In this document: positions 8,111 to 64,000 of the stretch, in pieces
Position numbering within the stretch: the stretch's first letter is position 1
Layout of the letters: each line of letters begins with the position of its first letter
Assembly (NCBI GenBank): GCA_963763165.1
Contig: CAVXNV010000004.1
Coordinates: forward strand, 292,652-356,651
Origin: an uncultured Alphaproteobacteria bacterium
GTDB taxonomy: Bacteria > Pseudomonadota > Alphaproteobacteria > Rhodobacterales > Rhodobacteraceae
DNA: 64,000 nt
Reading direction: 5' to 3'
Made by a program: the position numbers and the translations under genes
The notes under the pieces: model-generated
The model's input: only the letters and a program-made list of their open reading frames with translations
Told to the model about the DNA's origin: nothing
The model's database searches: none

Positions 8111-11100
8111 ATGTCCGTTGCTGGCTGTTTGACCGTTTACCGCAAGGCTCATCTCCTGATCGGTGTAGTCGGCTTGTTGGCACATGCCACGGCATCGTAT
8201 CCAGAAACAGCTCAGATCGGCCCGCCCGATCAGGCCAGGTCCGGGTATTGCACCCGCGACAAGACTGTGGTCGCCCGCGTCGTTGCGCTGGAGCAGATGT
8301 ACATCTACAACCGCTTCGGCGCGTTCAACCCCGGTGGGATGCTCTATGCGCTGCGCCGCGATGTGGTGACCAGCGACGACAGCGATGAGCCGGCATTGGA
8401 CAATATCGGCACCGCGCTGGGTGATGGCGAAGCGATTCCGCCTGAACCCGATCCGGCGACCGATGCGTTGCTTGCGGGAAACGTGCGCTTGCGCCCCGAC
8501 AAGCGGCCGAGGCCGATCGTCCTCCGGGTAAACGAGGGCGACTGCCTGAAGGTCGTGTTCACCAACCTTCTCAGTCCTGACCGCGACGGCGAGGAACATG
8601 TGATCGACCCGGCGACGGGAGAGGAAATCTCCACCGATTCGGATGAACCTGCAACGCGGTCCGCCTCGATCCATGTGAACGGGCTGGAACTCTCGGGTAG
8701 CGTCGCATCGGATGGTACGAATGTGGGCTTCAACGAAAACTCGCTCGCTGACCCGGGCGAGACAAAGACCTACACATGGATTGCCAAGAAGGAGGGTGGC
8801 TTCCTGCTTTACTCGATGGCCGCCGCCGCCGGCGGAGAGGGCGATGGCGGGCAGCTTGGTCTCGGTCTTTTCGGCTCCGTCAATGTCGAACCGGCGGGAT
8901 CCACCTGGTATCGGTCGCAGGTCACGGAAGAGCAGCTCGCGGCATCGCGGGACATGAGCTTCTTGAACTCGGACGGCAAGAAGGGTCTATCGGACGGCGG
9001 CACCCCGGTCATCGACTACGGGTCCACGGACAGCGCTGGTATCCCGATTCTTGCCATGAACATGCCCTCCGATGACCCGGATGCGGCGCACGAGATCGTC
9101 CATTCCGACATCAACGCCATCATCGACGTGCGCGAGAATGGCGAAAAGTGCGACCAGATCCTCGGCCCCGGCTCAGCCTGCGGCGAGCCGTTCCGCGAAT
9201 TCACCGTGATCTTCCATGACGAGATCACGGCCGTGCAGGCGTTTCCGGAACTGGAGGACGAGGAGAACCCGATTTCCGCCCTGCGCGACGGCATGGGCAT
9301 CAACTATGGCGCGGCGGGACTTGGTGCGATGGTGCTGGCCAACCGCAAGGACATCGGCCCGGCCAAGGACTGCGCCGAATGCAAGCTCGAGGAATTCTTT
9401 CTGACCTCCTGGGCAATGGGCGATCCGGCGCTTGTGATCGAACGGGGGCCCGAAAACAAAGCTGTCGCCGCGCTCTATCCCGACGATCCCTCGAACGTGC
9501 ACCATTCCTACCTCGGCGACGCCGTGCGGTTCCGCAACATGCACGCCGGGCCGAAGGAGACGCATGTTTTTCACCTCCACGCGCATCAGTGGACGCAGGA
9601 CTGGCACGATCCGGATTCGGTCTACCTCGACAGCCAGACCATTTCTCCCGGTGCGTCTTTCACTTACGAAGTGCATTATGGCGGCTCCGGGAACCGTAAC
9701 CTGACGCCCGGAGACTCCATCTTTCACTGCCACCTCTACCCGCATTTCGCCCAAGGCATGTGGGAACTTTGGCGCACCCACGACGTGTTCGAGGCCGGCA
9801 CCGACGATCGCAGGCTTCCCGACGCCGAGATTGCCGGCGGCACACCGAATCCCGCCATCGTACCGCTGCCCGACACGCCGCTTCCGCCGATGCCGACCTC
9901 GGCCTTCGAGGGCTATCCGTTCTACATCGCCGGAATTGCCGGTCATCGACCGCCGCAGGCGCCACTCGATATAGATCCGGATGCCTACGCCGAGGATGCA
10001 AACCAGACCCTGATGCGCCACGTCGTCCTTTCAGGCGAACGCGAAGTCGGCGTGGAAGCCTTCGGCACCGACGCGAACGGCGATCCGAAGGAATTGGAGG
10101 CGAAGTATTTCGACACGGCCATCCCCGAGGATGACCCAATGGGTCAGGCGAACCGCATCGCAGCGCGGGTTCGCGCCGAGAATGCGAACGACGCGCTCTT
10201 CGGGCTGGCTGCCAAGCTGACGAAGGCCTGGATCAGGCGGTTGCCGCTCGACGGCACACCAGAAGAGCAGACGGCGATGGAGTTTCACGCCGGAACTGGC
10301 CCCGGCGCGGTGGAGATCGCACGGTCGAAATATGGCGTGCCGGAACGCGGCTATCCGAGCTGCATGTCGAACGGCACCTGCAACGGGCCGGCGAGTGACG
10401 TGTTCTTCCGCGTCAACGGCTATTCCCCGAAACCCGGCGCACCGTTCGCCGATCCATGCCCGACGCGGTTCTATCTCGGCAAGAAGGAAGACGACCCTGA
10501 CGATCCGGCGAAATGGGCGGGGCTTCAGCCAGAACGGAGATACCGCACGACCTATTTGCAATTCGACATGCCGGTGAACAAGCATGGCTGGCACGACCCG
10601 CAGGGACGCCTCATCGCGCTGGAAGAGGACGCGGCAAGCATTCTCGATCATACGCGCGCGCCGGAGCCGTTCTTCTTCCGCGCCAATTCGGGCGAGTGCA
10701 TCGTCTTTGAGGCGACGAACCTGATCCCCTCGAATCTAAACCTCGACGATTTTCAGGTGTTCACACCGACCGATACGATCGGCCAGCACATCCATCTGGT
10801 GAAGTTCGACGTGACCTCTTCCGACGGGTCCGGCAACGGCTGGAACTACGAAGACGGAACGTTCTCGCCCGATGAGGTTCGCGAACGGATTTTGGCCAAC
10901 AATGCCTTCAAGGGCACGGCGGAACTGCGGCCCTTGACCCACCGGCTGTTCCGCAATGGCGGGCCGCTGGCGGGCGATCCGCGCGGGCAATGTCCCGAAA
11001 GCCTGCCCGCCGATCCGACCGAGGCCGAGCATGTGCTGGCCGATCATCCGTGGTGCGGCGCGCAATCGACGATCCAGCGATGGTGGGCCGATCCGCTGCT

Positions 11101-50994: not shown

Positions 50995-51145
50995 GGGCGT
51001 CGCGTGTTCCCTGAGACTCCTGCGGCACAGACCACGCGCGGCCAGCCCGGTCAAGCCCCGGCACCCCGCGCCGCGTAAAATCAACCCCTTCGCGCGCGGC
51101 GGGGCTGGACGAGGGCCCGGCCTTTCGCTACAGAAACGCCAGTGA

Positions 51146-51231
51146 GCCCAAGTGGCGGAATGGTAGACGCAGGGGATTCAAAATCCCCCGGCTTAACGGC
51201 CTTGTCGGTTCGAGTCCGACCTTGGGTACCA
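51146..51231 (+). tRNA. tRNA-Leu(CAA)
   Basis: Acceptor GCCCAAG/CTTGGGT; anticodon arm GGGGA-TTCAAAA-TCCCC; long variable arm; GGTTCGAGTCC T-loop; encoded CCA. Confidence 0.97.
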
Positions 51232-51259
51232 GCGCAAGTCTATGACTTTGCAAGAGAAC

Positions 51260-51287
51260 GCCGCCGATCCTTTGATCGGCGGCTTTT
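51260..51287 (+). terminator. Terminator after the tRNA
   Basis: GCCGCCGATC-CTTT-GATCGGCGGC-TTTT. Confidence 0.85.
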
Positions 51288-51489
51288 CCGTTTTTGCGTG
51301 ACTCTTACGGCTGACTCCCACGTCACTCTTGGAAATGCCGCATCTGCGCTGTTCGAAACATCGCCTTCTGGTTCGCCTCAGGATCACCCTCCCAATTGAG
51401 CTTCATATTAAGTTCCTTCCTCTTGCCGGACTTATCTTTCCAAGTGACCCGGTGATACGGCACCCATTCAGACCCGTTCCCGGGCCAAG

Positions 51490-51648
51490 CAGATCAAGAC
51501 GACGCTGAAGGGGGAGGTGGACGAGGAAGCCTCGGAAAGCCTCAAGAGAACCACATCCCGGCCATTCGCGCGCCCTAAATCAGAGCGAATTGCGATGAAG
51601 GTCATCAACCATCTGGGGGATGAAGTGATGAAGGTTTTGGGAGTTTAG
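51490..51648 (+). pseudogene. 3' remnant of a site-specific adenine DNA methyltransferase (Mod-like)
   Basis: KTTLKGEVDEEASESLKRTTSRPFARPKSERIAMKVINHLGDEVMKVLGV* matches the C-terminal SRPF.KP.SGRIAVKVINHLGDEVMKV tail I recall from such enzymes; no start codon or catalytic domain. Confidence 0.7.
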
Positions 51649-51650
51649 AG

Positions 51651-52064
51651 ATGGCTAAGGAATTAAGTGACCAAACTTTGTACATACTTCGCCACTTCGC
51701 AACAGGCGGGAGGTGCGGTGACCTGGCCCAAAAAGACCCCGGTATAAAATTAGCCTCGATTCGTCGCGCCCCTTTGGAAATGCTTCTGTTAGCCGAAGAG
51801 AAGTCAGAAAAAAAATGTTACAGCGTGCCGGATATTCGAGGAAAACACAAAAATGCCTACAAGCCTTGGACGGAAGAGGAGGAATCAGAACTCAAACGAC
51901 AATTGCATCACGGAACCGCGGTCGATCAGATCGCTGCCTCTTTGGGGAGGCAGCCATCTGCTATTCAGAGTCGGATTAGAAAGATCACTGAACCGCGCCG
52001 GATTTGCGGGAGGCTGATTGACGTTAGTTACGCGGCCACGGGTTCAGTTTCCAGAGCTGCGTAG
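51651..52064 (+). CDS. Low-GC hypothetical protein with Myb/SANT-like C-terminal HTH; 3' end supplied by the IS
   Basis: NAYKPWTEEEESELKRQLHHGTAVDQIAASLGRQPSAIQSRIRK; reading frame runs into the IS IR at 51989. Confidence 0.6.
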   Translation: MAKELSDQTLYILRHFATGGRCGDLAQKDPGIKLASIRRAPLEMLLLAEEKSEKKCYSVPDIRGKHKNAYKPWTEEEESELKRQLHHGTAVDQIAASLGRQPSAIQSRIRKITEPRRICGRLIDVSYAATGSVSRAA

Positions 52065-52936
52065 AAGTTTTCTTCGGCTTCTGCTGGCGGGATGTTCCCG
52101 ATAGGCTCGAGCAGGCGGCGGTTGTTGAACCAGTCGACCCATTCGAGTGTTGCGTATTCGACGGCCTCGAAGCTGCGCCACGGGCCGCGACGGTGGATGA
52201 CCTCAGCTTTGAACAGGCCGTTGATCGTTTCGGCGAGGGCGTTGTCATAGCTGTCGCCGACGCTGCCCACAGAAGGTTCGATACCCGCCTCTGCCAGCCT
52301 TTCGGTGTATTTGATGGACAGGTATTGGCTGCCTCGGTCGCTGTGATGCACCAGCCCCATGCCTTTGACCGGGCGACGTTCGTGGACCGCCTGTTCTAAT
52401 GCATCAAGGACGAAACCGGCGTGAGGGGAGGTGCTGACGCGCCAGCCAACGATCCTCCGAGCATAAGCATCGATCACGAAAGCCACATATGCGAACCCCT
52501 TCCAGGTTGCGACGTAGGTGAAATCACTGACCCACAGCATGTTCGGCGCGGGCACCCGGAACTGGCGGTTCACTTTGTCCAGCGGACAGGGCTGCTTTTT
52601 GTCGGGGATCGTCGTTCTGTGAGGCTTGCCTCGGATAATGCCCTGAATATCCATGTCCTTCATCAACCTCGCGACCGTGCAGCGAGCGACAGTAAAGCCC
52701 TCGCGGCGCAGCTGGTGCCAGACCTTGCGCACGCCGTAGACGCTCCAGTTCTCCTCGAAGACACGCCGAATCTCTGGCCGCATCGTCTCGTCCCGGCGCG
52801 CGCGATCCGACCACCGGGTTGGATCGGCCCTCTTGGCCAGATGATCATAATAGGTGGACGGGGCGATCGGCAGCACGTTGCAGATCGGCTCGACCCCGTG
52901 CGCATCACGATGCGCGTCGATGAAACCCACCATCAC
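52028..52936 (-). CDS. IS3 transposase OrfB (DDE)
   Basis: [26 protein letters not shown]. Confidence 0.95.
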
Positions 52937-53256
52937 TTCGACCGGCGGTCGAGCTCCGCCAGCGCAAAATAAGCCGACGCCTTGCGCAGTATCTCATTTG
53001 CCTGGCGCAGCTCGCGGTTCTCGCGTTCCAACGCCTTCATGCGCTCGGCCATCTCGCTGGAGACGCCCGGACGCTTGCCGCCATTGACCTCGGCCTTCTT
53101 GACCCAGTCGTTCAGGGTCTGGGGTGCGCAGCCGATCTTCGCCGCAATCGACATAATCGCCTGCCAACGCGACCCGTGCTGACCCTCATTGTCGAAGACC
53201 AGTCGCACCGCGCGTTCACGCACTTCAGGGGAAAACTTGTTCGTTGTCTTGTTCAT
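52933..53256 (-). CDS. IS3 transposase OrfA
   Basis: [17 protein letters not shown]; [23 protein letters not shown] zipper; GTGATG overlap with orfB. Confidence 0.95.
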
Positions 53257-53400
53257 GATGCTCCATCCTAATCAGGAGTTGGAGCCTCCGGCAAACCCGG
53301 CGCGGTTCACCTCTTCGGGCGAAGGCTTGAGGCCACAAGCCCAGGGACTGCTGCTTCGATCGGTTTAGCCGCTATGGTCAAGCTTCCTCTCGCAAACTCC

Positions 53401-54735
53401 CTAATCGAGCCGCTCAAGCACGCGCGCGAGCATGGTCAGAAAATGGTCGGCATTCTCCCGCGTAAAGATCAGCGGGGGCCTGATCTTCAGAACGTTGGCG
53501 GTTTTCGCACAGCCGGAGATCAAGACACCCTCCTCACGAAGACCGTTGATCACGGCGGTTGCAGTGGCCGCATCGGGGGTCTTCCGGACGCGATCGGAGA
53601 CCATTTCGACGCCGATGAACAGTCCCGCGCCACGAACGTCGCCGATGCTGTCGTGGCGCTCGGCGAGCGCTCTCAGACCCTCACGCATGTGGTCGCCGAT
53701 TGACCGGGAATTCTCCAGAAGCCCCTCGTCCTCGATCACGTCCAGGACCGCGGAAGCGGCGGCCACGGCCACGGCGTTGCCCCCAAATGTATTGAAGTAC
53801 CGCGCCTTGCGGCCAAATTCCTGGACCAGTTCGGGGCGGACCGCGACGCCAGCGACAGGATAGCCGTTCCCCATAGGCTTGCCCATGGTAACGATGTCAG
53901 GGATCACGTCATGGCGCTGGAAGCCCCAGAACGCGTCGCCGGTGCGCGCGAAGCCGGATTGAACCTCATCGGCAATATAGAGCGCTCCGGCCCCGTGGGC
54001 GGCTTCAACAGCCCCTTTCAGGAACCCGGCTGGTGAATCAAAGACACCGTCACTGGCGAAGATGCCATCACAGATGAAAAACGCGGGCCTGATGCCGTGG
54101 CGCTTGAGGTCGGCAAAGGCAGCGGCGACGGACTCGGCGAAGCGCTCCGGCATTGCGGCGCCCATGCGATAGGTGTCCGGCGCAGGCACGGTCCTGACGT
54201 GTGGTCCGAGGTCGACATTTTCGCCAAGCGACGGTGAGAATTCGGAGACGCTCTGCGTGATGCCGTGATAGGCGGTCTCCGTGACCACGATGCCGACACC
54301 GCCGGTACAGGCCTGAGCGATCCGGCATGCCAGGTCATTGGCGTCCGAGCCGGTGCAGGTGAACATCATGTGGCCGATGGCGTCGGGCATGGTTGCCAGC
54401 AGGCGCTCGGCGTAGTCGAGAATGGTGCCGTGGATGTACCGTGTGTTCGTGGCAAGCACGCCTGCCTGCGTGGCGATGGCCTCCACCACCTTGGGATGGC
54501 AATGCCCGATGGATGTGACGTTGTTGTATGCATCTAGGAAGGCGCTGCCTTCGGGATCAAAGAGCCAAGCGCCTTCGCCGCGAACAACATGCAGGGGCTT
54601 CTTGTAGAATAGACGATATGCCGGGCCGAGGAGGTCTCGACGACGGTCGATCATCCGACGGGTGTCAGGGTCGAGCTCGGAAGCGCCTTCTTGGAAGGCA
54701 TTGACCATGCCAGTATCGCTGTTCATGTCCGTCAT
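53401..54735 (-). CDS. Class III PLP enzyme (ETNPPL/PHYKPL phospho-lyase or GABA-aminotransferase-like)
   Basis: LDAYNNV..GHCHP, TNTRY, CTGSDAND, YHG, IADEVQSGFAR.G, VTMGKPMGNG, YFNTFGGN; ATGA-coupled to the kinase. Confidence 0.9.
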   Translation of the reverse strand: MTDMNSDTGMVNAFQEGASELDPDTRRMIDRRRDLLGPAYRLFYKKPLHVVRGEGAWLFDPEGSAFLDAYNNVTSIGHCHPKVVEAIATQAGVLATNTRYIHGTILDYAERLLATMPDAIGHMMFTCTGSDANDLACRIAQACTGGVGIVVTETAYHGITQSVSEFSPSLGENVDLGPHVRTVPAPDTYRMGAAMPERFAESVAAAFADLKRHGIRPAFFICDGIFASDGVFDSPAGFLKGAVEAAHGAGALYIADEVQSGFARTGDAFWGFQRHDVIPDIVTMGKPMGNGYPVAGVAVRPELVQEFGRKARYFNTFGGNAVAVAAASAVLDVIEDEGLLENSRSIGDHMREGLRALAERHDSIGDVRGAGLFIGVEMVSDRVRKTPDAATATAVINGLREEGVLISGCAKTANVLKIRPPLIFTRENADHFLTMLARVLERLD

Positions 54736-55814
54736 TCCATGTCGCAAGCGCGCAAAAGGGCGCGGGTAACATCTTGGGTGGGGAGTGTCGCAAAGCGCAG
54801 CATCGCATCCCTGGCCGGCCCGTTGTTCCGAAGAATGTAATCGGCGTTCTCCGGATAGCGTGCGGCGCGCCAGGTCGTGATGGTTATCGAGGCCACGAGC
54901 CGCGCGACGATCAGATCCCGAAGCAGCACGACCTCCTCTTTCAGCAAAGGGGTCGCAACGTGATAGGCCGATACCATCCGCGTCACCGCGTCCAGGGGCT
55001 GCGCTTCGCTGGCGAGGTAGGAAGCAGCGACCGCGACGTCGATGGCGAGGTGGGTGTGCACCATGTCGCCGAAATCGAGCACTCCGGAAATGCGATCGGG
55101 TGCGTCAGGATCGACAAGGATATTGTGATGGTTCATGTCGTTGTGAACCACCTGCTGCCGCAAGCGAGACAGCGGAGTTTGGGCCTCGGATCCGAACCGT
55201 GCGAGTTCGGTGCGTACCATTTTCCCTATCTCGTCATTCTCAAGGACGTCGGTCAGAGGCTGAAGTCGAGGCAGGTTGCGGATATCCCACAGCAGATCAT
55301 GGTGTGCCCCTGGGTGGTCAAAGCGGGCCAATGCATGTCCGAGGCGGGCAAGCACGGTGCCGATCTCTGACTGCATCGCCCGGGTGATTCCGATACGGTG
55401 CAGGGGGGTTCCGTCAAGCCAGCTGAGAACCCGTCCGATGCTGGTGCGACCGTCTGGCAGGGTCACGGGGACGCAATAGAGGCCACTCGATGCCGCCACG
55501 GTGCGCGGAAGCGGCAGGGCGGGGTCGACCTTTTCGACCCAGCGCAGCGCAGCTGTCTGGAAATCGGTATTCTCGGGATCCTCGACCGGGTTCGAAAGCT
55601 TCAACACGAAGCCGGGGCCGTCTGCAGCAGTGATCCGGAAATTCTGGTCGCGTTCGCAGGCGATCTCCTGAGCGTGCCCCTGGATGCCCCAATGTGCCTG
55701 TAGAAGCTCCTCGGCTTGAGCACTGGTGACGCGCGGCGGCGCGCTCGACAGAAGTCCTGCAAGGAGCGGGTCCGTCGCAATTGCGGAATCGTCGAGATGA
55801 AGACTATCAGGCAC
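54732..55814 (-). CDS. APH-fold phosphotransferase (hydroxylysine kinase-like)
   Basis: ERDQNF, VLKLSN, WLDG, LLWD, HNDMNHHNIL, LDFGD; start GTG 55814 or TTG 55820 overlapping the pxpC-like stop. Confidence 0.88.
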   Translation of the reverse strand: MPDSLHLDDSAIATDPLLAGLLSSAPPRVTSAQAEELLQAHWGIQGHAQEIACERDQNFRITAADGPGFVLKLSNPVEDPENTDFQTAALRWVEKVDPALPLPRTVAASSGLYCVPVTLPDGRTSIGRVLSWLDGTPLHRIGITRAMQSEIGTVLARLGHALARFDHPGAHHDLLWDIRNLPRLQPLTDVLENDEIGKMVRTELARFGSEAQTPLSRLRQQVVHNDMNHHNILVDPDAPDRISGVLDFGDMVHTHLAIDVAVAASYLASEAQPLDAVTRMVSAYHVATPLLKEEVVLLRDLIVARLVASITITTWRAARYPENADYILRNNGPARDAMLRFATLPTQDVTRALLRACDME

Positions 55815-56781
55815 GTTCAAGAACCTCGGGGCGCGTTTTTTGGTCGATTGCGGCGCGAAGCGCGCCTGCCTCGGCGCGATCGACGCGCCGGAAGCGGAGA
55901 ATCTCGTCCGGCTTGGCCTGGGCGAGCTTCCAGAAGGCTGCACTGGCCACCGTAAACGGATTGATAAATCCCCCCGTGCTCGGCGAGTCGTTTACGAGGA
56001 TGATGGGTGTCTGCCCTGCAAGGTTTATTGCCCCCATAGGATATCCGTGATCGACGATGTTCGAAGGGTCCTGGCCGTGATCCGGCGACTTGTTCAATGC
56101 CTTTTCGGAGAACCTGAACTCCGGGCCCGTGAGCCGCAGGCCGGTTCTGCTGCTCTTGGCCTGCAGTGTCCAGTCCGACGAAAAGAAGGCCTCGACGGTC
56201 TCGTCGCTGAGCCAGTCGTCGTTCGGCCCGGCGAGGGCTTCGATCTCCCAGTGGCGGTCGGCCGCGATTTCAGGGCGCGCTATCTCGGGGATCGTAAAGA
56301 GTTCGGAGGCGGTGCTGTCACCGACGGGGATGCTCTGACCGCTTACGAGGGCGCGGCCGCCGACACCTGCCTGGTGGAAAACCGCGCGCGACCCCATTAC
56401 TGGGTCCGTCGCGATGCCGCCGGAAACGGCGATGTAGCTTCTTGCACCCGTTCGCGCAAACGACAGGGTCAACGTCTGCCCGGCGCGAACGGGTACCGTC
56501 GCGAACATGGGAACCGGCTCTCCGTTCAGCTCCGGAGACATGTCGCCACCCGTTATCGCAACAAGCAGATCGGCCTCAAAGGTCAGTGTCGGACCGATGA
56601 ATTGGCACTCGAGCGCCGCGGTGTCGCGATCGTTGCCGACAAGGATGTTGGCCTGACGGAAGGACCAGGCATCGAAGGGGCCTGAGATCGGGAAACCCTG
56701 CTCAAGGAAACCCTCTCGGCCAGGAAGCTCCTGGACGCACGTCTGCAGACCCGGTTTGACCGTGGTGATGCTGCGGCTCAT
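55807..56781 (-). CDS. PxpC/AHS2-like carboxyltransferase-fold subunit
   Basis: PGLQTCVQELPGR.G, SGPFD, ANILVGN, R.YIAV.GG, SSRTGLRL, GQTPIIL..D.PSTGG. Confidence 0.88.
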   Translation of the reverse strand: MSRSITTVKPGLQTCVQELPGREGFLEQGFPISGPFDAWSFRQANILVGNDRDTAALECQFIGPTLTFEADLLVAITGGDMSPELNGEPVPMFATVPVRAGQTLTLSFARTGARSYIAVSGGIATDPVMGSRAVFHQAGVGGRALVSGQSIPVGDSTASELFTIPEIARPEIAADRHWEIEALAGPNDDWLSDETVEAFFSSDWTLQAKSSRTGLRLTGPEFRFSEKALNKSPDHGQDPSNIVDHGYPMGAINLAGQTPIILVNDSPSTGGFINPFTVASAAFWKLAQAKPDEILRFRRVDRAEAGALRAAIDQKTRPEVLERA

Positions 56782-57644
56782 GCGGAAGCCTCCTGCTGTA
56801 CCCTGGCCCATTCGAGATAGCGATCGACCGAGAAGACCTGATAATCGATGATGTCATGGCGGAAGGTACCTTCAGTCACACGGGCCTCGATTTCGCGGTA
56901 TTCATCGCGTTCCACCGGAACGAAGCGGACACGGTCCCCGGCCCGGAACAGGGCAAGGCTATCCCGGAAATCCGGAAGCCGTTGGTCTCCGTCATACATC
57001 GGCGCCGGCGTGTGTCCAACAAGTTGGTAGCCGCCCGGCGTGTCGTCGGGATAGATGCAGGTGAGGGCACCTCCGATTCCGACCGCCCCCTTGGGGGTCT
57101 GCGTCCTCGGGGGATTGTACTTGGGTGCGACGATCCGTGCCTCGGGCCTGAGTGCCAGAAGAGAGCAGAGGCCCGGCCAGAAACCGAGAGCCGCGACCCA
57201 GTATTCGGTGGAGGCATGCCGCCTTTTCAGCGCGTCGCGGTCGGACAGCCCGTTCAGTTCACAAACAAGGTCTGGATCAGGTGTCTTGTCGGGGTAGTCC
57301 TTGCGGTATCGTTCCACGCAGGCTTCGGTCTTGTCGTCGAAATAGAGGACAGGGATAGTGATCAGGCGACTTGCAAGCGCGCCCGTCACGCCGCGACCCA
57401 CCGCCGTATAGAGCGCTTCAATTTCAGAACAGAGATCCTCGTAGGAGATGCGGTCCGGGTCATAGTTGACCTGGAAGGAGGCGAGTTCGGGTATCAGGTC
57501 GATCAACCCGTCTATCTTCGCAGCACGCACTTCTGCGACCAGGCGATGGACGATGAAGTTGATCGTGAAATCCATCCCGTCGCCGAGCTCGACTTCGATC
57601 GCGCGATCGCCACCGGGGAAAAATCGAGGAGACTCATGAAGCAT
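56778..57644 (-). CDS. PxpB/AHS1-like subunit (long, 288 aa)
   Basis: GDRAIEVELG, IPELASFQVNYDP, ITIPVLY, ALGFWPG, TPKGAVGIGG, TPGGYQLVG.TP, GDRVRF. Confidence 0.88.
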   Translation of the reverse strand: MLHESPRFFPGGDRAIEVELGDGMDFTINFIVHRLVAEVRAAKIDGLIDLIPELASFQVNYDPDRISYEDLCSEIEALYTAVGRGVTGALASRLITIPVLYFDDKTEACVERYRKDYPDKTPDPDLVCELNGLSDRDALKRRHASTEYWVAALGFWPGLCSLLALRPEARIVAPKYNPPRTQTPKGAVGIGGALTCIYPDDTPGGYQLVGHTPAPMYDGDQRLPDFRDSLALFRAGDRVRFVPVERDEYREIEARVTEGTFRHDIIDYQVFSVDRYLEWARVQQEASA

Positions 57645-57717
57645 CGGGCCTGTGTCTCCTTCCTGTGAGGTGGCTGGCTGAGCCTGGTGGAGCGCTGGAC
57701 ACGCCGCAAACCCCTCG

Positions 57718-57765
57718 TATATGATATATTTTCAATCACAGCTAACCGTTTGCTATATGATATAT
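57718..57765. promoter_or_regulatory. Two copies of TATATGATATAT, candidate GntR operators
   Basis: Exact 12-mer at 57718-57729 and 57754-57765 (near-palindrome TATATSATATA) in the AT-rich pxpB/gntR intergenic region. Confidence 0.65.
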
Positions 57766-57838
57766 CAATTTTAGTCAATGGACTTCCCCGCAGAATCGCC
57801 GCAGAGCGACGTCCAACCAAGCGCATGAGGGGCACCGA

Positions 57839-58495
57839 ATGAAAAAGATCGAGCACCAGTCTTTGAGCGACCGGGCCTACAGTGAGATCCGGGAGGGGCT
57901 GCGAGAGGGGTTCTTCGCGCCGATGGAACCTCTCGTCATTCGCACGCTCGCTGCAGAATATGGTATTTCGGCAACCCCGATCCGGGAGGCCTTGCAGCGA
58001 CTTGTGGCCGAGCGTCTTCTGATGGTGTTGCCGAGCCGATCAATCGTCGTGCCGCGCATGACCCAGAAGCGGTTCCGGGAGTTGATGCCGATCCGGGAGT
58101 CTCTGGAGGGTATGGCGGCGGTGTTGGCAGCAGAGCGGAGTTCCGAGGAGGAGATCCAGGCGCTGACCGCGCTCACCAGCGAAGTCGAGGCTGCTGCGGA
58201 TGATCGTGACTCCGCTAGGTATCTGGCCTTGAACCGTGAATTCCATTTCAAGATCTATGAGGCGGCCCGAAATCCCGAGTTACTTCAGCTCATCGGCGAT
58301 CTTTGGTTGAAGGTCGGACCCGTCTTCACCGGGCTTTTCGACGACGACTATTTCAAGGAGCACGCGAACGACGAGCACCGCAATATTCTCGCGGCCATTG
58401 CGCGCCGGGATGCGGATGCGGCTGGTCGATACATGCGTCGGGACATCAGTATTGCGGCGCAGGCTCTGCTTCCGCTCATGCCCGAGGCTGCCTGA
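57839..58495 (+). CDS. GntR/FCD-family regulator
   Basis: SLSDRAYSEIREG...LAAEYGISATPIREALQRL; FCD NREFHF and EHRNILAAI. Confidence 0.95.
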   Translation: MKKIEHQSLSDRAYSEIREGLREGFFAPMEPLVIRTLAAEYGISATPIREALQRLVAERLLMVLPSRSIVVPRMTQKRFRELMPIRESLEGMAAVLAAERSSEEEIQALTALTSEVEAAADDRDSARYLALNREFHFKIYEAARNPELLQLIGDLWLKVGPVFTGLFDDDYFKEHANDEHRNILAAIARRDADAAGRYMRRDISIAAQALLPLMPEAA

Positions 58496-58654
58496 CGTCG
58501 CCAGACGCAGATAGGCTTGGCGCCATCTCCCAATGCGGTCCGCCCGCGCGGCGGTCTTGCGTTGTGACCGCGACGGGGCGGGCGCAGTAATAGCGGTTTT
58601 CGAAACGCTCCCAGCTCCTGGAACGGGCGTATCGAGCTTGATTGACGGAAATGC

Positions 58655-58699
58655 TTGACAGGAAGCTGCCTCCGGTAGTGATATAAGGTACATCATATA
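58655..58699 (+). promoter_or_regulatory. pxpA promoter with a third operator-like site
   Basis: Perfect TTGACA at 58655-58660; TACATCATATA at 58689-58699 (reverse complement TATATGATGTA, 1 mismatch to the repeat). Confidence 0.55.
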
Positions 58700-58716
58700 T
58701 CATTTAGGCGGGCGGT

Positions 58717-59451
58717 ATGGTTACGATCAATTGCGACATGGGCGAAGCCTTCGGGATCTATTCGTTCGGCGACAACTCCGTCTGCATGCCCTACGTGACG
58801 CATGCCAACGTGGCCTGCGGGTTTCACGCCTCTGACCCTGTTGTCATGCGGGAGACAGTCCGCAAGGCGAAGGCGGCCGGGATTCAGGTCGGCTCCCATC
58901 CCGGGTTGCCTGATCGCGAGGGTTTCGGTCGCCGCCGCATGCAGATGCGGCGTGATGAGATCTCGGCCTTGGTCATCTACCAGACCGGCGCGCTCCAGGC
59001 CTTCGCAGCGTCCGAGGGTGTAACGCTTTCCCATATCAAGCCTCACGGCGCGCTTTTCGGGATGGCACAAAACGAAACCGAGGTGGCGGAGGGGATCGCC
59101 GACGCCGCCGAGGTTCTGGGGCTTCCCGTCATCGCATTTTCCGACTGCTGCATGTCGGACGTTTTCTCCCGTCGCGGGATTCCTTTTTCCTGCGAGTTTT
59201 ATGCGGATCTCGAGTATGATGATGCAGGGCGTCAGATCATCTCGCGCGTGCATGCGGAAGTCGACCCGGAAGCGGTCGTCGCAAAGGTTCGCCGCGCGGT
59301 GCGTGATGGGACGACGACTTCGGTCTCAGGTAAGGAGGTGGCTGTCGTGGCTCAGAGTATCTGCGTTCATTCGGATACCCCGAATGCCGTGTCCGTGGCG
59401 CGGGCCGTGCATGCGGCGCTGAGCTCCGACGGACTCCTCGACGCGACATGA
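58717..59451 (+). CDS. LamB/YcsF (PxpA-like) lactam utilisation subunit
   Basis: INCDMGE, ANVACGFHASDP, GSHPG..DR.GFGRR, HIKPHGAL, EFYAD..Y, ICVHSD. Confidence 0.93.
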   Translation: MVTINCDMGEAFGIYSFGDNSVCMPYVTHANVACGFHASDPVVMRETVRKAKAAGIQVGSHPGLPDREGFGRRRMQMRRDEISALVIYQTGALQAFAASEGVTLSHIKPHGALFGMAQNETEVAEGIADAAEVLGLPVIAFSDCCMSDVFSRRGIPFSCEFYADLEYDDAGRQIISRVHAEVDPEAVVAKVRRAVRDGTTTSVSGKEVAVVAQSICVHSDTPNAVSVARAVHAALSSDGLLDAT

Positions 59452-60923
59452 TCGCCGTGCGGACCAAAACGGGCGCGGCCCTCCAACAGGCGCTCGCAGA
59501 TGGACTTGCGCCGGTTTTGCGTGCAATCTCCGGGGGGCTTGGCCCCCAGGGGCGTGCAGCGGTCTATGCCGTGGGGCAGGATGTCCGGCGCGCGGAGACA
59601 GGTACCGAGATCGCCCGGCGTTTCACCGGAAGCGGCGCCGCCGAGGTGCTCCTGAAGGAAGCGCTGGTTGCAGCCGAGAGGGACCTCGGAGATGGTTCTT
59701 CCCGTCTGGCGGTGATGGCCGGTGCGGCGCTCCACGCGGGACGGAAGTCGCTTGCGGCAGGCATTCATCCCGCACAGCTCCATCGCGCCGTCAAGGCACT
59801 CGGCGCTGAGCTCGACGGGCATTTTGCGACCCTCACGAACCCTGACCCACGGGTTCAGGAAGTGCTTCGCGCGGCAGGGCTGCAAGCCTCCGCCGCGGCC
59901 GAGCTGGAGCGGGCACTTCGCCTGGCCGGTGAGGGGGGGCATGTCGAGCTGACCGCGACCCCGGAGCCTGGCCTGCGTCTCGATCACGTCGAGGGGTTCT
60001 CGGCCGATATGACGCCGCTTCTTTCGGGCGAACTGGGGCACATGGATCATGTGCATGTCCTGGTGGCCAACGACATCATTGTGGATTTCCGCAGACTTGC
60101 CCCTGTCATCGAAGGGTTCGCGCGCAGCGACAAGTCGCTGATCATCGCGGCCCGCGGCATCGAGGGGGCGGCGAAACAGCTGCTTGAGCGGAACCGGCAA
60201 GCTGGCGTGCTGCGCGTGGCGGCGCTGACTCCGCGGGATGCGGGGCCCCGGGCGGTCGAAATCCTGAAGGATCTTGCCTGCGCCACGGGCGCCATGCTCG
60301 TGGACGACGAAACCGGCCAGTCCCTTGAGACGCTCACACCTGCTCACCTGGGCTCGGCGGCCACGTTCCGTCGTTCGGGTACGCGCGTGACCTTCGTAAA
60401 GCCGGCAGGGGCGCCCGAGGATGTCGCCGCCCGGCTGAAGGACGTCGAGCATGACATCGGGCGGCATCGATACCTCGCGCTCGACCGCGAACATGCGCAG
60501 CGTCGGCACGCGCGCCTGTCGGGCAAGTGGGTCGAGCTGTTGGTGGGACCGGATCGAACCGATCCGGCGCGTGTCGATCGGATGTCGCGTGCCTTGGCCG
60601 CGGTGCGCTCGGCGCAGTCCGGGGGCACGATCGCCGGTGCGGGCGCGGGACTTGCCGAGGTGGCAGCGCTAATTGAGCCCGAGCAATCCGCTGACCCGGC
60701 TGAGCGCGCCGCGCGCCGTCTCGTGGCGCAGGCCCTCCGCGCTCCGGGACGATGCCTGCGACGCAATGCGGGGCTGGAGGCTTTGGACGGGATCTTGCCC
60801 CACGAGGGATTGGCCGATCCGGCGCGTCTCTCCCGCGACCTTTACGACATCTCGCTCTCGCTGGCCCTGCAACTTCTGAGCCTCGAAGCTGCAGTGCAGC
60901 CTGCGCATCGCACTTCTTGCTGA
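59448..60923 (+). CDS. Highly divergent GroEL/Cpn60-like protein (491 aa)
   Basis: Colinear with GroEL: LGPQGR (LGPKGR), LLKE...GDGSSR (GDGTTT), AAGIHP..L.R, VEG, LIIAARGIEG, LKDLACATG, DREHAQRRHARLSG, GLADP (GILDP); ATGA overlap with pxpA. Confidence 0.88.
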   Translation: MIAVRTKTGAALQQALADGLAPVLRAISGGLGPQGRAAVYAVGQDVRRAETGTEIARRFTGSGAAEVLLKEALVAAERDLGDGSSRLAVMAGAALHAGRKSLAAGIHPAQLHRAVKALGAELDGHFATLTNPDPRVQEVLRAAGLQASAAAELERALRLAGEGGHVELTATPEPGLRLDHVEGFSADMTPLLSGELGHMDHVHVLVANDIIVDFRRLAPVIEGFARSDKSLIIAARGIEGAAKQLLERNRQAGVLRVAALTPRDAGPRAVEILKDLACATGAMLVDDETGQSLETLTPAHLGSAATFRRSGTRVTFVKPAGAPEDVAARLKDVEHDIGRHRYLALDREHAQRRHARLSGKWVELLVGPDRTDPARVDRMSRALAAVRSAQSGGTIAGAGAGLAEVAALIEPEQSADPAERAARRLVAQALRAPGRCLRRNAGLEALDGILPHEGLADPARLSRDLYDISLSLALQLLSLEAAVQPAHRTSC

Positions 60924-60962
60924 CCGCTTCGTTCAGCGACACGCCATGACTGAGGAACCGAA

Positions 60963-62045
60963 ATGACCGAAATGCATCCCGAACCCATGCTCGAGGTTGC
61001 GAATGTCGTGCACAAGTACGGGCGGGTCACTGCGCTGTCCAACGTCTCGCTGTCGGCCGGCAAGGGCGAATTCCTTACCATTCTGGGCTCCAGCGGCTCC
61101 GGCAAGACCACCCTTTTGCGGGTCATCTCCGGCCTGGAGATACCATATTCCGTCGATCGCTTGCGCATCGGCGGTGAAGATGTCGTCGGCCTTCCCGCGG
61201 CGAAGCGCAACTGCACCACGGTATTTCAAAATTACGCCCTGTTTCCGCACATGAACGTGATCGAGAACGTGGCCTACGGCCTGAAAATCCGCGGGCGCGC
61301 GCCGCGCGATGCGACTCGCCTGGCCCGGGAAGCGCTCGAGATGGTGCAGCTTGGCAGCAAGGCGGACAGGTCCATCCGCCAGTTGTCAGGCGGTGAGCGG
61401 CAGAGGGTGGCGCTGGCGCGGGCGGTGGTGACGCGCCCGGCCGTCCTTTTGCTCGATGAGCCGCTGGGGGCCCTCGATGAAAGGCTGCGTCAGGACATGC
61501 AGCTCGAGTTGATGGAACTGCAGCGCAAGCTCGACATGACGTTCGTCTATATCACGCACAGCCAGGAGGAAGCCCTGACCATGAGCGACCGCGTCGTGCT
61601 GATGCGGAACGGCCGGATCGAGCAGAGTGGCAGGCCGCTCGAGCTGTTCGACCGTCCGGTCACGCGGTTCGCGGCGGACTTCATGGGCTACGAGAATATT
61701 CTTTCCGGGCGACTTCTGAAACGAGACGCCGACATCGGCCAGGTCGAGCTCGAGGGCGGCGCGGTGATGCAAGGCACGCTCGCCACCTCTGAGGCACAGC
61801 CGGGCAGCTCCGTGAACATCGCGGTACGCGCGGAACGCATCGGGGCGGTCGGGCCCGGCGAAGAAGGCATAGGCGGCACCCTGGGGACACGTATCTACCG
61901 GGGCAAGTACACGGACATGCTGCTCGACACCGCGGCTGGAACCCTGCGCCTGCGGAGTTGGCACGGGGCACCGGGAGAAGACGAGGCCCTGACACGGGTC
62001 GGCTGGAAACCGGGCGATGCCGTCATCTTCCCCGAACACGCGTGA
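60963..62045 (+). CDS. ABC ATPase, PotA-like
   Basis: GSSGSGKTT, VFQNYALFPH, LSGGERQR, LLLDEP, ITHSQEEA, TOBE-like C-terminus. Confidence 0.95.
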   Translation: MTEMHPEPMLEVANVVHKYGRVTALSNVSLSAGKGEFLTILGSSGSGKTTLLRVISGLEIPYSVDRLRIGGEDVVGLPAAKRNCTTVFQNYALFPHMNVIENVAYGLKIRGRAPRDATRLAREALEMVQLGSKADRSIRQLSGGERQRVALARAVVTRPAVLLLDEPLGALDERLRQDMQLELMELQRKLDMTFVYITHSQEEALTMSDRVVLMRNGRIEQSGRPLELFDRPVTRFAADFMGYENILSGRLLKRDADIGQVELEGGAVMQGTLATSEAQPGSSVNIAVRAERIGAVGPGEEGIGGTLGTRIYRGKYTDMLLDTAAGTLRLRSWHGAPGEDEALTRVGWKPGDAVIFPEHA

Positions 62046-62126
62046 CGCACGCGGCGCTCGGGGCTTGCCGGCCGTACGGCCGGAACAAGAGAACCGCCCG
62101 TCGGGCGGCCAACAGGAGAGAGAAAG

Positions 62127-63335
62127 ATGAAGGACAAGTTTTCCACTTTCGACCAGATTGAGCTGACGCGGCGCGGCATGTTGCGCGGCATGAGTGCTCT
62201 TGCCGGAACGGCGGCGCTTGGCGCGGCGGGATTTGCTCCGCGCAGCCTTGCCGCACAGGACATGCCTTTGGTGAAGGCCTATGGCGTTCCGACCGCCGCG
62301 CTGAAAGACTGGTCTCCCATGGAGGCCAGCATCGGGGTGCGGTGCGAACTGAACGGTACCTCCAACGATGTCGGTGTCTTCATGCGCGACATCATGGCGT
62401 CGAACCTCGGCGAGACCACCGACATCTATATCTTCGAGAGCGGCACCGAGGACATCCTCGGGCCGCGTGGGCTCTATGCCAAGATCGACCCCGAGCATCC
62501 TGAACTGAAGCTCTGGGAGCGGACCTCCGACAGCTGGAAGCGGTCGCCGGTGGTGACCGATGCCGAAGGTACCCAATGGGGCGTTCCGGTGATCGGCAAC
62601 GCGGACAGTTTCGGCTACGTGCCCGAAGCACTCGGTCTCGATCCCGACAGCGAGGAAGAGCTTTCGTGGTCGCTGATGTTCGTGGACGAGGAGACCCGCG
62701 GGCGTGTCGCCTATGGTCAGGGCTGGACGTATTCGATGCCGTCTGCGGCGCTTTATCTCAAGGCGACGGGCCAGGCTGAGATTGAAGACGTCGCGGACAT
62801 GACACCGGAGGAGGCGACCGTCGTGGCGGACTTCCTCGTCGAGCGAAAGCGCGCTGGTCAGTTCCGGACTCTTTACGGCGCCTTCGAGGAGCAGATCCAG
62901 CTTCTGACCAACAAGGAAGTGGATGTCATCAACTGCTGGGAGCCTGCGGTCCGCGAAGCCAATGCCGTTCTTGGGCCGGATGCCACGAGGTATGCCTATA
63001 CCAAGGAAGGCTACTTCAAGTGGGGGCATGGGGCCTATGTGGCGGCACCAGCGATGGAGCGGGACAACGTCGACGCAATCTACAAGGTGCTCAACTACTT
63101 CCTGGATGGCGAATACCGTGCGCTGCAAGCGCGGGATCGCGGTTATGCCGGTCCGAACATGGATCTCGGCGTTGCCTATGCAGAGGAACAGGGGTGGTCC
63201 GAAGAGGAGATTGCGGCGCTGAAGGCAACCGAGGCCAAGGTGAACCGGAAGTTCGAAAAGCCCTTCACCTCCACGACGACTCCGCAGAACGCTTCGGAAA
63301 TCGAGGAGCAGTGGCAGCGTTTCCTCAACGCATGA
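62127..63335 (+). CDS. ABC substrate-binding protein (PotD/F-like) with Tat signal
   Basis: TRRGMLRG twin-arginine leader with AxA-type site; YAYTKEGYFKWGHG, YKVLNYFL. Confidence 0.88.
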   Translation: MKDKFSTFDQIELTRRGMLRGMSALAGTAALGAAGFAPRSLAAQDMPLVKAYGVPTAALKDWSPMEASIGVRCELNGTSNDVGVFMRDIMASNLGETTDIYIFESGTEDILGPRGLYAKIDPEHPELKLWERTSDSWKRSPVVTDAEGTQWGVPVIGNADSFGYVPEALGLDPDSEEELSWSLMFVDEETRGRVAYGQGWTYSMPSAALYLKATGQAEIEDVADMTPEEATVVADFLVERKRAGQFRTLYGAFEEQIQLLTNKEVDVINCWEPAVREANAVLGPDATRYAYTKEGYFKWGHGAYVAAPAMERDNVDAIYKVLNYFLDGEYRALQARDRGYAGPNMDLGVAYAEEQGWSEEEIAALKATEAKVNRKFEKPFTSTTTPQNASEIEEQWQRFLNA

Positions 63336-63431
63336 CGCCATAGCTGGCCCCTGCCAGAGGCGGGGGCCGACGTCGTCGGTCTGCGCCGCCGTTGGGCGGC
63401 GCTGCCGATATCACGGACGACAGGAAGAGAC

Positions 63432-64000
63432 ATGACGATGGACGCCGAGATGGATGCGGATATGGCTCGGACGGAGGCGGGCAGGCGGCGGACCCGCAAG
63501 GGGCGCCGCATCCCGCCCGACCAGCTTGCCCTTTGGGCAATCTGCCTTGGATGGGCCGTGCTCGTCATTGTGCCCCTGATCATCCTCTTGGTCTTCAGTT
63601 TCTTCAGTACCGAGTATTTTCAGACGGTTTACGAACCGACACTCGATACCTGGAAGGGGCTCTTCGCGTCCGGCCGCTGGGAGGTGACGCTGCGGACGCT
63701 GCGGATCGCCTTGACCGTGACGCTGATCGAGCTCGCAGTCGGGTTCCCGTTCGCGCTCTGGCTCGCAAAGGGCACGAAGAACAAGCCGACCCAGGCGGTC
63801 TTGCTGGCCCTTCTGACGATCCCCTTCTTCCTCGACCTGTCGTCGCGCACAATCGTCTGGCGCGCGATCCTCGGGCAGAACGGGTTGATCAATACAGTCC
63901 TGGTCTCTACCGGCTTGAGTGACGCCCCGCTCGACTGGTTGCTCTACACCGAATTCTCGGTGCATTTCGGTATGATACCGGCACTTTTTCCGCCAATGGT
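63432..64000 (+). CDS. ABC permease PotB-like (partial, runs off the window)
   Basis: Absent from the ORF track because it has no stop in the window; ATG 63432 gives ...IVPLIILLVFSF...TLRIALTVTLIELAVGFPFALWL...LTIPF...R..WRAILGQNGLIN. Confidence 0.9.
   Translation, partial: MTMDAEMDADMARTEAGRRRTRKGRRIPPDQLALWAICLGWAVLVIVPLIILLVFSFFSTEYFQTVYEPTLDTWKGLFASGRWEVTLRTLRIALTVTLIELAVGFPFALWLAKGTKNKPTQAVLLALLTIPFFLDLSSRTIVWRAILGQNGLINTVLVSTGLSDAPLDWLLYTEFSVHFGMIPALFPPM

Follow-up and report, generated by a model that had tools for sequence, protein, structure and literature searches.

This study concerns a catabolic gene cluster that occupies the last part of a 64,000-nucleotide stretch (the window, throughout) of contig CAVXNV010000004.1, positions 292,652 to 356,651, from an uncultured member of the Rhodobacteraceae (assembly GCA_963763165.1). 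From position 53,401 to beyond the window's end, the cluster brings together genes of the three PxpABC (5-oxoprolinase) families, a kinase of the aminoglycoside phosphotransferase (APH) fold, a class III pyridoxal phosphate (PLP) enzyme, a GntR-family regulator, a degenerate GroEL-like protein and an ATP-binding cassette (ABC) importer. The same set of genes, arranged in at least three different orders, was found across the Alpha-, Beta- and Gammaproteobacteria in 41 species-level genomes, and in sister clusters both its putative ring-opening genes and its amine-removing genes are exchanged for others around an orthologous importer. Judging from these comparisons, there is in our estimate an even chance that the locus constitutes one GntR-controlled regulon for the catabolism of a small lactam with a hydroxyl next to the ring nitrogen's carbon.

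Two divergent operons around a GntR gene

All the genes that an earlier note, made by reading the letters of this stretch, had described here were found and are intact, according to the open reading frame (ORF) listing and the Pfam/NCBIfam scans (Table 1). The layout proposed in that note, two divergent and tightly packed operons on either side of the GntR gene, was also recovered, overlapping junctions included. The pxpB and pxpC genes are adjacent and overlap, and pxpA is placed in the opposite operon. The realistic start of the kinase gene is the GTG at 55814, which gives an 8-nt overlap with the pxpC stop; alignment with the Thioclava orthologue puts the likely true start of the lyase gene at the ATG at 54726; and pxpA and the GroEL-like gene meet in an ATGA overlap, the latter being translationally coupled to pxpA. 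At one end, the permease genes run into adjoining genome DNA that was also examined (ORFs 11084-12013 and 12029-12865 of stretch L002), where potC is followed by a convergent gene of the metallo-beta-lactamase fold, so that the plus-strand operon stops about 1.2 kb past the window end. At the other end, 53401 is not the natural finish of the minus-strand operon: the remnant of a biotin carboxyl carrier protein (BCCP) gene and an IS3-family insertion sequence (IS) adjoin the lyase gene.

The two operons also have a sequence motif in common. Three copies of the 9-mer ATGATATAT lie in the 64-kb window, where 0.04 matches would be expected, all of them in the two promoter regions of the cluster, and the matching site in Thioclava retains GTATATGATATATCA. 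The motif makes a good candidate for the operator of the GntR protein, whose gene stands beside the cluster in 51 of 56 loci, and its presence in both promoter regions would tie the two operons into one regulon.

Table 1. Features of the cluster and of the adjoining insertion sequence (window coordinates; those beyond 64000 are window-equivalent)
Feature	Position	Strand	Family or evidence
IS3-family insertion sequence	51989-53309	-	Pfam HTH_Tnp_1 and rve
IS3 inverted repeats, 27 nt	51989-52015 and 53283-53309		
IS3 orfB	52028-52936		
IS3 orfA	52933-53256		
BCCP gene, 5' remnant of about 24 codons (about 70 nt)	53310-53380	-	DNA and peptide alignment with Thioclava and KMM 6894 BCCP
Enzyme of the PLP phospho-lyase branch	53401-54747	-	PF00202, 244.6 bits over residues 51-444
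APH-fold kinase	54732-55814	-	PF01636
pxpC, PxpC/KipA-like carboxyltransferase subdomains A-B	55807-56811	-	PF02626 (CT_A_B)
pxpB, PxpB/KipI-like carboxyltransferase subdomains C-D	56778-57644	-	PF02682 (CT_C_D)
Candidate GntR operator, two ATGATATAT copies	57721-57729 and 57757-57765		pxpB/gntR divergent promoter region
GntR-family regulator with FCD ligand domain	57839-58495	+	PF00392 and PF07729
Third ATGATATAT copy	58695-58703	-	just upstream of pxpA
pxpA, LamB/YcsF, putative metal-dependent lactam hydrolase subunit	58717-59451	+	PF03746
Degenerate GroEL-like protein, 491 aa	59448-60923	+	Cpn60_TCP1, 72.7 bits
PotA-like ABC ATPase with TOBE domain	60963-62045	+	PF00005 and PF08402
Tat-exported periplasmic substrate-binding protein, 402 aa	62127-63335	+	twin-arginine (RR) signal peptide
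PotB-like permease	63432-64000, on to 64361	+	NCBIfam PotB, PF00528
PotC-like permease	64377-65213, past the window end	+	PF00528

Conserved enzymes, importer and biotin genes

A survey centred on the substrate-binding protein (SBP) returned 80 species loci, in 41 of which both the kinase and the lyase genes are present (the kinase-type loci); at least two pxp genes accompany them in 41 of 41. A rare meeting of the kinase-lyase pair with pxp genes, which the earlier note had named as grounds for abandoning its proposal, is thus not what this co-occurrence survey found among the pairs reached through the SBP. The Alphaproteobacteria show the order pxpB-pxpC-kinase-lyase-BCCP-BC, where BC stands for biotin carboxylase; in Burkholderiaceae potC is followed by pxpB-pxpC-BCCP-BC with the kinase-lyase pair divergent; and Halotalea has a single co-directional operon without the GroEL-like gene and without BC. 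The genes that flank the cluster in Thioclava, Caballeronia and Pseudohoeflea are mutually unrelated, and clustering every ORF of 56 loci de novo produced 13 known families plus shadow ORFs, with no further conserved family beside the cluster. Such recurrence in 41 species and in different orders argues that the arrangement is not due to chance.

As regards the PLP enzyme, its proposed assignment to the phospho-lyases (the AGXT2L/ETNPPL/PHYKPL branch), and not to the ordinary transaminases, is sustained by comparison with proteins of solved structure. Its best matches in the Protein Data Bank (PDB), to both of which it is about 45% identical, are the Arthrobacter phospholyase 5G4I (A1RDF1; 5e-105, 355 bits) and human ETNPPL (6TOR; 9e-103, 348 bits), and the next entries, isoleucine epimerase and dialkylglycine decarboxylase, reach about 188 bits (2.8e-54); in this search no transaminase, racemase or decarboxylase of the class comes as close to the enzyme as the characterised phospho-lyases do. 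The segments VTMGKPMGNG, which holds the Schiff-base lysine, ADEVQSGF and GSDANDLA align identically or nearly so with 5G4I and 6TOR, and the Thioclava orthologue is 81% identical over the full length. By its sequence, then, this is a member of the phospho-lyase branch of class III, predicted to eliminate phosphate and ammonia.

The kinase retains the residues of its fold, namely K72 (the ATP lysine), H224-N225-D226...N231 (the HNDxNxHN loop) and D247-F-G-D250, which are invariant in 34 of 34 aligned homologues. No PDB sequence matched it at E<=0.001. Its AlphaFold2 (AF2) model (pLDDT 92.7) retrieved with Foldseek homoserine kinase II (2PPQ) in first place, amicoumacin kinase and N-acetylhexosamine kinase among the others, and the aminopropanol kinase 6EF6 in sixth place; these nearest folds indicate a small-molecule hydroxyl kinase, whose role on amino alcohols is putative. 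Furthermore, the best NCBIfam matches of kinase and lyase are the two ends of the same fusion families of about 1000 aa, PRK06148/PRK06149 (the kinase being the N-terminal part of PRK06148), which constitutes a Rosetta-stone argument for a joint function, and the lyase gene adjoins an APH kinase gene in 63 of 65 kinase-family loci.

When species-representative genomes were scanned with the kinase as the centre, 80 loci were returned, and the full pxp/GroEL-like/ABC/GntR set was present in only seven of them (two Rhodobacterales, Pseudohoeflea and four Caballeronia). Another setting of the pair comprises an Opp-type transporter, an HDAC-like amidohydrolase, a thiamine diphosphate (ThDP) enzyme and an M20 peptidase, and yet another an ethanolamine-ammonia-lyase-like protein (assigned by eye). 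The pair is therefore a portable, general module, and its tie to pxp is recurrent but not exclusive. A dedicated clade of pxp-linked lyases was considered and rejected, as the lyase tree needs 8-9 context switches; with shuffled labels about 32 are needed, and context is kept within clades. Two more pairs were found in the same genome, which therefore holds three copies of the module. One of them, at C3:91552-93792 (L167, about 5496-7793; kinase 43% and lyase 59% identical), lies near an Opp transporter, a ThDP enzyme and an M20 peptidase, and its lyase is split into overlapping ORFs (L167 5496-5924 and 5809-6660), probably through a frameshift in a pseudogene or a sequencing error. The other, more distant, is at C2:22817-25780 (kinase 30%, lyase 38% identical).

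The PxpABC label is right at the level of families, all three of which are present (Table 1), but not at the level of function models. PxpB reaches 98.9 bits on the 5-oxoprolinase equivalog TIGR00370 (cut-off 145.55) and PxpC 158 bits on the equivalog NF045499 (cut-off 500), and PxpA passes only the subfamily model NF003814 (258 bits, cut-off 226). PxpB and PxpC score higher on the carboxyltransferase region of the urea carboxylase model TIGR02712, with 266 bits for PxpC on positions 447-762 and 168 bits for PxpB on positions 807-1086. On these scores the Pxp proteins of the window are paralogues, and not equivalogs, of the validated 5-oxoprolinase.

The label had also left out the biotin genes. 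BC lies within 10 kb in 32 of the 41 kinase-type loci. The two genes come right after the lyase gene in Alphaproteobacteria, right after pxpC in Burkholderiaceae, and between pxpA and pxpB at a second pxp locus of the present genome (C7:447693-451920, L166 5643-9942; order pxpA-BCCP-BC-pxpB-pxpC), which adjoins a divergent LysR regulator and whose PxpB and PxpC are likewise under the 5-oxoprolinase equivalog cut-offs. BC and BCCP thus travel with the pxp genes and not with the kinase-lyase pair; they stand beside the carboxyltransferase subunits in those 32 relatives and at C7, and the window has only a remnant. The BC tested is above the cut-off of PRK12833 and the BCCPs, with 86.8 and 104.8, are at or above that of PRK07051 (87), two models that both carry the name 'acetyl-CoA carboxylase'. 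The presence of dedicated BCCP and BC genes in most relatives argues that the ring-opening chemistry is probably linked to biotin and bicarbonate, and is not that of plain PxpABC.

Several published findings bear on this. Cryo-electron microscopy has shown how the mycobacterial PxpC/PxpB homologues MSMEG_0435/0436 take up the biotin of a BCCP domain, placed suitably for carboxyl transfer; key residues of urea carboxylase are missing from these homologues, as is the activity of that enzyme (PMC13012033). Caprolactam hydrolysis is endergonic, and the caprolactamase CapAB requires both ATP and bicarbonate, a carboxy-lactim intermediate having been proposed for it (PMC8453981). In Pseudomonas putida, genetics has identified the PxpABC paralogue PP_2920-2 as a butyrolactam hydrolase (bioRxiv 10.1101/2021.12.09.472016). 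The Pxp set of the cluster would then probably use carboxybiotin to activate a lactam.

It could also be argued that a 5-oxoprolinase operon, a polyamine importer and a kinase/lyase of the ethanolamine-phosphate type have simply come to lie together by chance and share no pathway, all the more as each part is plausible as a stand-alone function and the kinase-lyase pair is found in other contexts. We consider this highly improbable: the same 11-13 genes recur in different orders over three proteobacterial classes, an operator motif is common to both operons, the Pxp proteins fall short of the 5-oxoprolinase equivalog cut-offs, and the genome has a second pxp locus.

In the window itself, the 90 nt between the lyase stop and IS3 align to the start of the BCCP gene of relatives, the remnant peptide IEAAVPGLV aligning with MAITQIEAALPGLV of their proteins, and the alignment breaks off at the IS3 end, well ahead of the biotinyl-lysine motif. 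Thioclava sediminum and Rhodobacteraceae bacterium KMM 6894 are the closest relatives, with protein identities of 67-87%; in both, the gene of an 82-aa BCCP lies downstream within 25 nt of the lyase gene, and that of a BC of about 460 aa comes after it. The element is 1321 bp long and is present in the genome in six 100%-identical copies (the others at C11:652047-653367, C11:994281-995601, C10:3790-5110, C4:426182-427502 and C1:182-1502), which indicates that it was recently active; two of the copies are close to contig ends and may account for assembly breaks. A simple insertion was rejected, since the rest of the BCCP gene and BC are not on the element's far side. Nor was any BC or BCCP homologue found on the rest of the window's contig (C4) or beside any other IS3 copy, no matching 3-bp target duplication flanks the element, and the DNA to its left has no similarity to the DNA after BC in the relatives. 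The six identical copies, the missing duplication and the non-syntenic left flank together point to a recent IS-associated deletion or rearrangement. Just left of the element, at 51000-51999, the G+C content is 0.55, compared with 0.60-0.68 in the surrounding stretches, and the ORF at 51651-52064 has no Pfam match; this low-G+C stretch may be foreign DNA brought in by the rearrangement.

As most of BCCP and all of BC have been lost, lactam opening would here be either disabled or reliant on the C7 paralogues, which could in principle stand in for the lost pair, and the cluster copy of this genome may be impaired. It may even be a decaying remnant, ring opening having been inactivated by the IS3-linked loss and the other genes being intact only owing to the recency of that event. 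This is a serious possibility, although we would not call it the probable one. It would agree with a BCCP gene broken off around codon 24, short of the biotinyl-lysine motif, and with the absence of BC, with the recent activity of an element that left no target-site duplication, and with the split lyase ORF of the C3 pair; on the other hand, the eleven genes that remain are full-length, with 67-87% identity to their Thioclava orthologues, a paralogous BCCP and BC are at hand in the C7 locus, and some intact-looking relatives also have no adjacent BC. This reading bears on the condition of the present copy and can stand together with the lactam function proposed for the cluster. Moreover, the truncated genome provides a natural BCCP/BC knock-out to set beside Thioclava.

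The importer had been described as polyamine-type, which is correct for the PotA-type ATPase and the PotB/PotC-type permeases, the PotA model being the top match of the ATPase (335 bits, under the equivalog cut-off of 482), but for the SBP holds by fold only. The SBP has no Pfam match and no sequence relative in the PDB (best E-value 0.14); its AF2 model (pLDDT 83) retrieved with Foldseek YdcS, SpuE and PotF, at TM-scores of 0.67-0.81 and 17% identity, and the gamma-aminobutyric acid (GABA) receptor Atu4243 was also among the matches. It has at least 338 homologues, the 120 listed all being at least 62% identical, and members of the family are 57-87% identical to the window protein across classes. 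By sequence and predicted fold, this is a distinct, highly conserved family of its own within the PotF/SpuE/YdcS fold. An attempt to read the ligand from the SBP failed, as the PDB offers no sequence relative and the fold search gives generic polyamine receptors only. In some metagenome-assembled genomes of Alphaproteobacteria, an 809-aa amidase resembling the beta subunit of N,N-dimethylformamidase (DMFase) is encoded near the same SBP family (L154:3243-5672, L141 near 15046, L143 near 7438), a hint that importers of this family handle small amides more broadly.

Module swaps and the proposed route

The strongest evidence here for what the clusters have in common comes from the sister clusters. 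In the SBP tree a split with 98% support separates one clade that contains every kinase-type locus from a sister clade with three other layouts. The first (eight loci, from sponge-associated Poriferihabitaceae, Arenicellales and others) has the ABC, GntR and pxpABC genes, often BCCP/BC, and the Cpn60-like protein, together with a 474-aa class III enzyme and no kinase. The second (six loci) has no PxpABC, and a divergent HyuB-HyuA pair stands beside Cpn60-like-potA-SBP-potBC-aminotransferase-GntR. The third, in a few loci, has the DMFase-like amidase. HyuA and HyuB belong to the hydantoinase/oxoprolinase family, the same as that of the caprolactamase CapAB, which is unrelated to PxpABC. The aminotransferases of the first two layouts match omega-amino-acid and GABA:pyruvate transaminases with E-values of 1e-140 to 1e-155, and also the 6-aminohexanoate transaminase of P. 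jessenii (6G4B). By sequence assignment, therefore, two unrelated families of ATP-dependent lactamases interchange around one orthologous importer, and so do two routes of amine removal. Both swaps suggest a common logic, that of opening a lactam and then removing the terminal amine; they are what the scheme of the earlier note, from lactam to terminal amine to aldehyde, predicts, and lend it comparative support. The version with kinase and phospho-lyase would then serve products that carry a hydroxyl vicinal to the amine.

The GroEL-like protein also finds its place in this comparison. A Cpn60/GroEL-like gene is indeed present, as had been noted, but the protein it encodes is degenerate as a chaperonin: GroEL models give at most 155 bits (cut-off 352), LGPxGR is retained and the nucleotide site GDGTTT is altered to GDGSSR, and its length of 491 aa compares with 546 aa in the genome's own GroEL. 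The gene is present in 39 of the 41 kinase-type loci and in the HyuAB-type sister clusters, and it lies just upstream of the ABC ATPase gene in kinase-type, PxpABC-transaminase and HyuAB-transaminase clusters (for instance L163:6864-8576 and L085:5545-7125). Being kept in all three cluster types, its partner would be the importer or the class III PLP enzyme, and not PxpABC specifically.

The following route can be proposed. The PotF-fold SBP and the PotABC-type transporter would import the compound, whose ring would be opened, at the cost of ATP, by the PxpA/PxpB/PxpC-type enzyme, with PxpB/C as the carboxyl-transfer or activation component and PxpA as the hydrolase; in intact relatives, carboxybiotin would be supplied by the dedicated BCCP and BC. 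Ring opening would expose a terminal H2N-CH2-CH(OH)- group, the hydroxyl of which would be phosphorylated by the APH-type kinase, and the AGXT2L-type phospho-lyase would then eliminate phosphate and ammonia to give an omega-oxo acid, for example succinate or glutarate semialdehyde, to be oxidised by housekeeping dehydrogenases encoded elsewhere. The GroEL-like protein would be a conserved accessory. We infer the order of the reactions, the substrate class and the role of biotin from the gene families and their associations. The hydroxy-lactam idea of the earlier note is thus the best-supported reading and has gained from the comparison of clusters, but its substrate class has stayed an inference, and the biotin genes and the truncation had escaped it.

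A more specific version, which we put forward as a tentative and rather doubtful one, considers the widespread five-gene orphan module LamB/YcsF-KipI-KipA-BCCP-BC as a biotin-dependent lactamase feeding a hitherto unknown hydroxy-lactam route that ends in kinase/phospho-lyase deamination, with the GroEL-like protein as a dedicated partner. Carboxybiotin made by BC would carboxylate the lactam on PxpB/C, thus activating an otherwise uphill amide cleavage; PxpA would then hydrolyse the ring, and the carbamate would decarboxylate.

Several observations weigh against the hydroxy-lactam route. In the model, the SBP has the fold of a polyamine receptor, for which a cationic amine would be no less likely a ligand than a neutral lactam. 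Between kinase-type and transaminase-type SBPs there are about five semi-conservative differences in conserved columns (F236Y, V267M, V275T, R276K and T287V), so that the ligands of the two clades would be very similar or identical, and both cluster types may take the same one. The lyases of the pxp-linked loci do not form one clean clade. Nine of the 41 kinase-type loci have no adjacent BC; a BC is encoded elsewhere, at 55-65% identity, in six of seven such genomes, and in Robbsia there is a match of about 50% only, which suggests that biotin may not be obligatory. No aldehyde dehydrogenase or hydroxylase is conserved beside the cluster in the 56 loci whose ORFs were clustered, and it is the missing aldehyde dehydrogenase that counts here. 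Finally, the cluster is truncated in the present genome.

One alternative is a salvage or repair function, in which an open-chain amino-hydroxy acid or amino alcohol is imported and degraded directly by kinase and lyase, and Pxp (with BC/BCCP) only re-opens a dead-end lactam formed spontaneously from the substrate or from an activated intermediate. 5-Oxoprolinase is itself regarded as a damage-control enzyme. The PotF/SpuE/YdcS fold of the SBP, with a GABA receptor among its matches, would fit such a function, and a study of P. putida indicates that lactam hydrolases may recover spontaneously cyclised omega-amino acids (bioRxiv 10.1101/2021.12.09.472016). We nevertheless deem it unlikely, because an ATP-consuming module of three to five genes is retained in all kinase-type loci, the sister clusters replace Pxp by another ATP-dependent lactamase rather than losing it, and the Pxp module has its operator motif in common with the transporter operon; a module so conserved is more readily understood as a main-line step than as one of repair.

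In a second alternative the amine would come first: a hydroxylated polyamine or amino alcohol, such as 2-hydroxyputrescine or 1-amino-2-propanol, would be imported and converted by kinase and lyase to an (amino)aldehyde, and PxpBC with BC and BCCP would come in later, to act on a product that has cyclised or as a genuine biotin-dependent carboxylase and not a lactamase. The receptor fold speaks in favour of this, as do the better scores of PxpB/C on the urea-carboxylase model and the resemblance of the sister-cluster transaminases to putrescine/polyamine:pyruvate transaminases as well. The cluster is, in addition, common in Burkholderiaceae, which are rich in 2-hydroxyputrescine. The HyuAB family, for its part, also includes acetone and acetophenone carboxylases (PMC8453981), but the ORF lists show no gamma subunit beside the HyuAB pairs, and the lack of urea carboxylase activity in MSMEG_0435/0436 (PMC13012033) tells in the same direction. 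Besides, the aldehyde product offers nothing obvious to carboxylate, the passage from 4-aminobutanal to a lactam needs an oxidoreductase that is absent from the cluster, and the hydrolase-type subunit PxpA is always kept. All this makes the amine-first route quite unlikely.

Marine Rhodobacterales, sponge symbionts, rhizobia and Burkholderiaceae commonly have an importer of this family; from this wide spread, the substrate is probably an abundant natural nitrogen compound.

Beyond the cluster, downstream of the metallo-beta-lactamase-fold gene, a second, convergent ABC importer is encoded at L002 14022-17944 (window-equivalent 66370-70292). It comprises an SBP_bac_8 binding protein, a permease and a 615-aa ORF in which about 280 extra N-terminal residues precede the ABC ATPase and TOBE domains.

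Likeness to known systems

If the proposed route is true, it would provide a physiological role and a substrate class for bacterial phospho-lyases of the AGXT2L type, and the same for the orphan PxpABC+BCCP+BC modules that are annotated in many genomes as 'acetyl-CoA carboxylase' and 'allophanate hydrolase subunits'. The recent finding of mycobacterial PxpC/B homologues gripping the biotin of BCCP makes the question of these orphan modules timely, and the three-way swap around one importer (PxpABC plus biotin versus HyuAB, kinase plus lyase versus transaminase) gives experimenters a comparative handle. In the literature examined, no description was found of the combination of a lactamase module with a kinase/phospho-lyase, of the dedicated, highly conserved PotF-fold importer family, of the constant GroEL-like partner, or of a function for the PxpABC+BCCP+BC module, and the literature searched held nothing relevant on the catabolism of 4-amino-3-hydroxybutyrate (GABOB), hydroxy-pyrrolidone or hydroxy-piperidone.

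Each part of the cluster has, nonetheless, its recognisable counterpart. The importers PotFGHI and PotABCD have in common with that of the window a TOBE-domain ATPase, two permeases and an SBP of the PotF/SpuE fold; the SBP of the window differs from PotF in being only about 17% identical, unrecognised by Pfam, Tat-exported and a family of its own. The pairing of a PLP enzyme with an APH-fold kinase is likewise known from human HYKK/PHYKPL, ETNPPL, the Arthrobacter enzyme A1RDF1 (5G4I) and the mycobacterial 6EF6 module; compared with the modules of the HYKK/PHYKPL type, the window kinase has no sequence match to solved kinases, and what is new is that the pair is coupled to a lactamase and an importer.

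The ring-opening genes, in turn, stand between two systems. With the PxpABC 5-oxoprolinase (YbgJKL in Escherichia coli, KipI/KipA/YcsF in Bacillus subtilis) they have in common the same three Pfam families and the overlap of pxpB and pxpC, whereas the window PxpB and PxpC are far under the equivalog cut-offs, pxpA is in the other operon and the relatives co-encode BCCP and BC. In urea amidolyase/urea carboxylase (BC, a KipA/KipI-like carboxyltransferase and BCCP), it is the carboxyltransferase region to which PxpC and PxpB align, and BC and BCCP have their counterparts in the relatives. Urea carboxylase N-carboxylates an amide before hydrolysis, which follows the same energetic logic, ATP being spent to cleave a stable amide; unlike it, the cluster has split and not fused subunits, and a hydrolase of the LamB/YcsF type instead of allophanate hydrolase.

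As a whole, the cluster may be compared with the caprolactam, valerolactam and butyrolactam clusters of Pseudomonas (CapAB/OplBA or PP_2920-2 with an omega-transaminase), in which there are likewise an ATP-dependent ring opening, a removal of the terminal amine that leads to an omega-oxo acid, and a local regulator. The sister clusters described here, with HyuAB or PxpABC and an omega-transaminase, have essentially that layout. The window cluster departs from it in that the amine would be removed by kinase and PLP phospho-lyase instead of a transaminase, and, together with its relatives, adds a PotF-fold ABC importer, a GroEL-like protein and (in the relatives) BCCP and BC, which are not described for the Pseudomonas systems in the literature examined. 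The parts thus belong to known families, and the logic of the cluster resembles that of the Pseudomonas lactam pathways.

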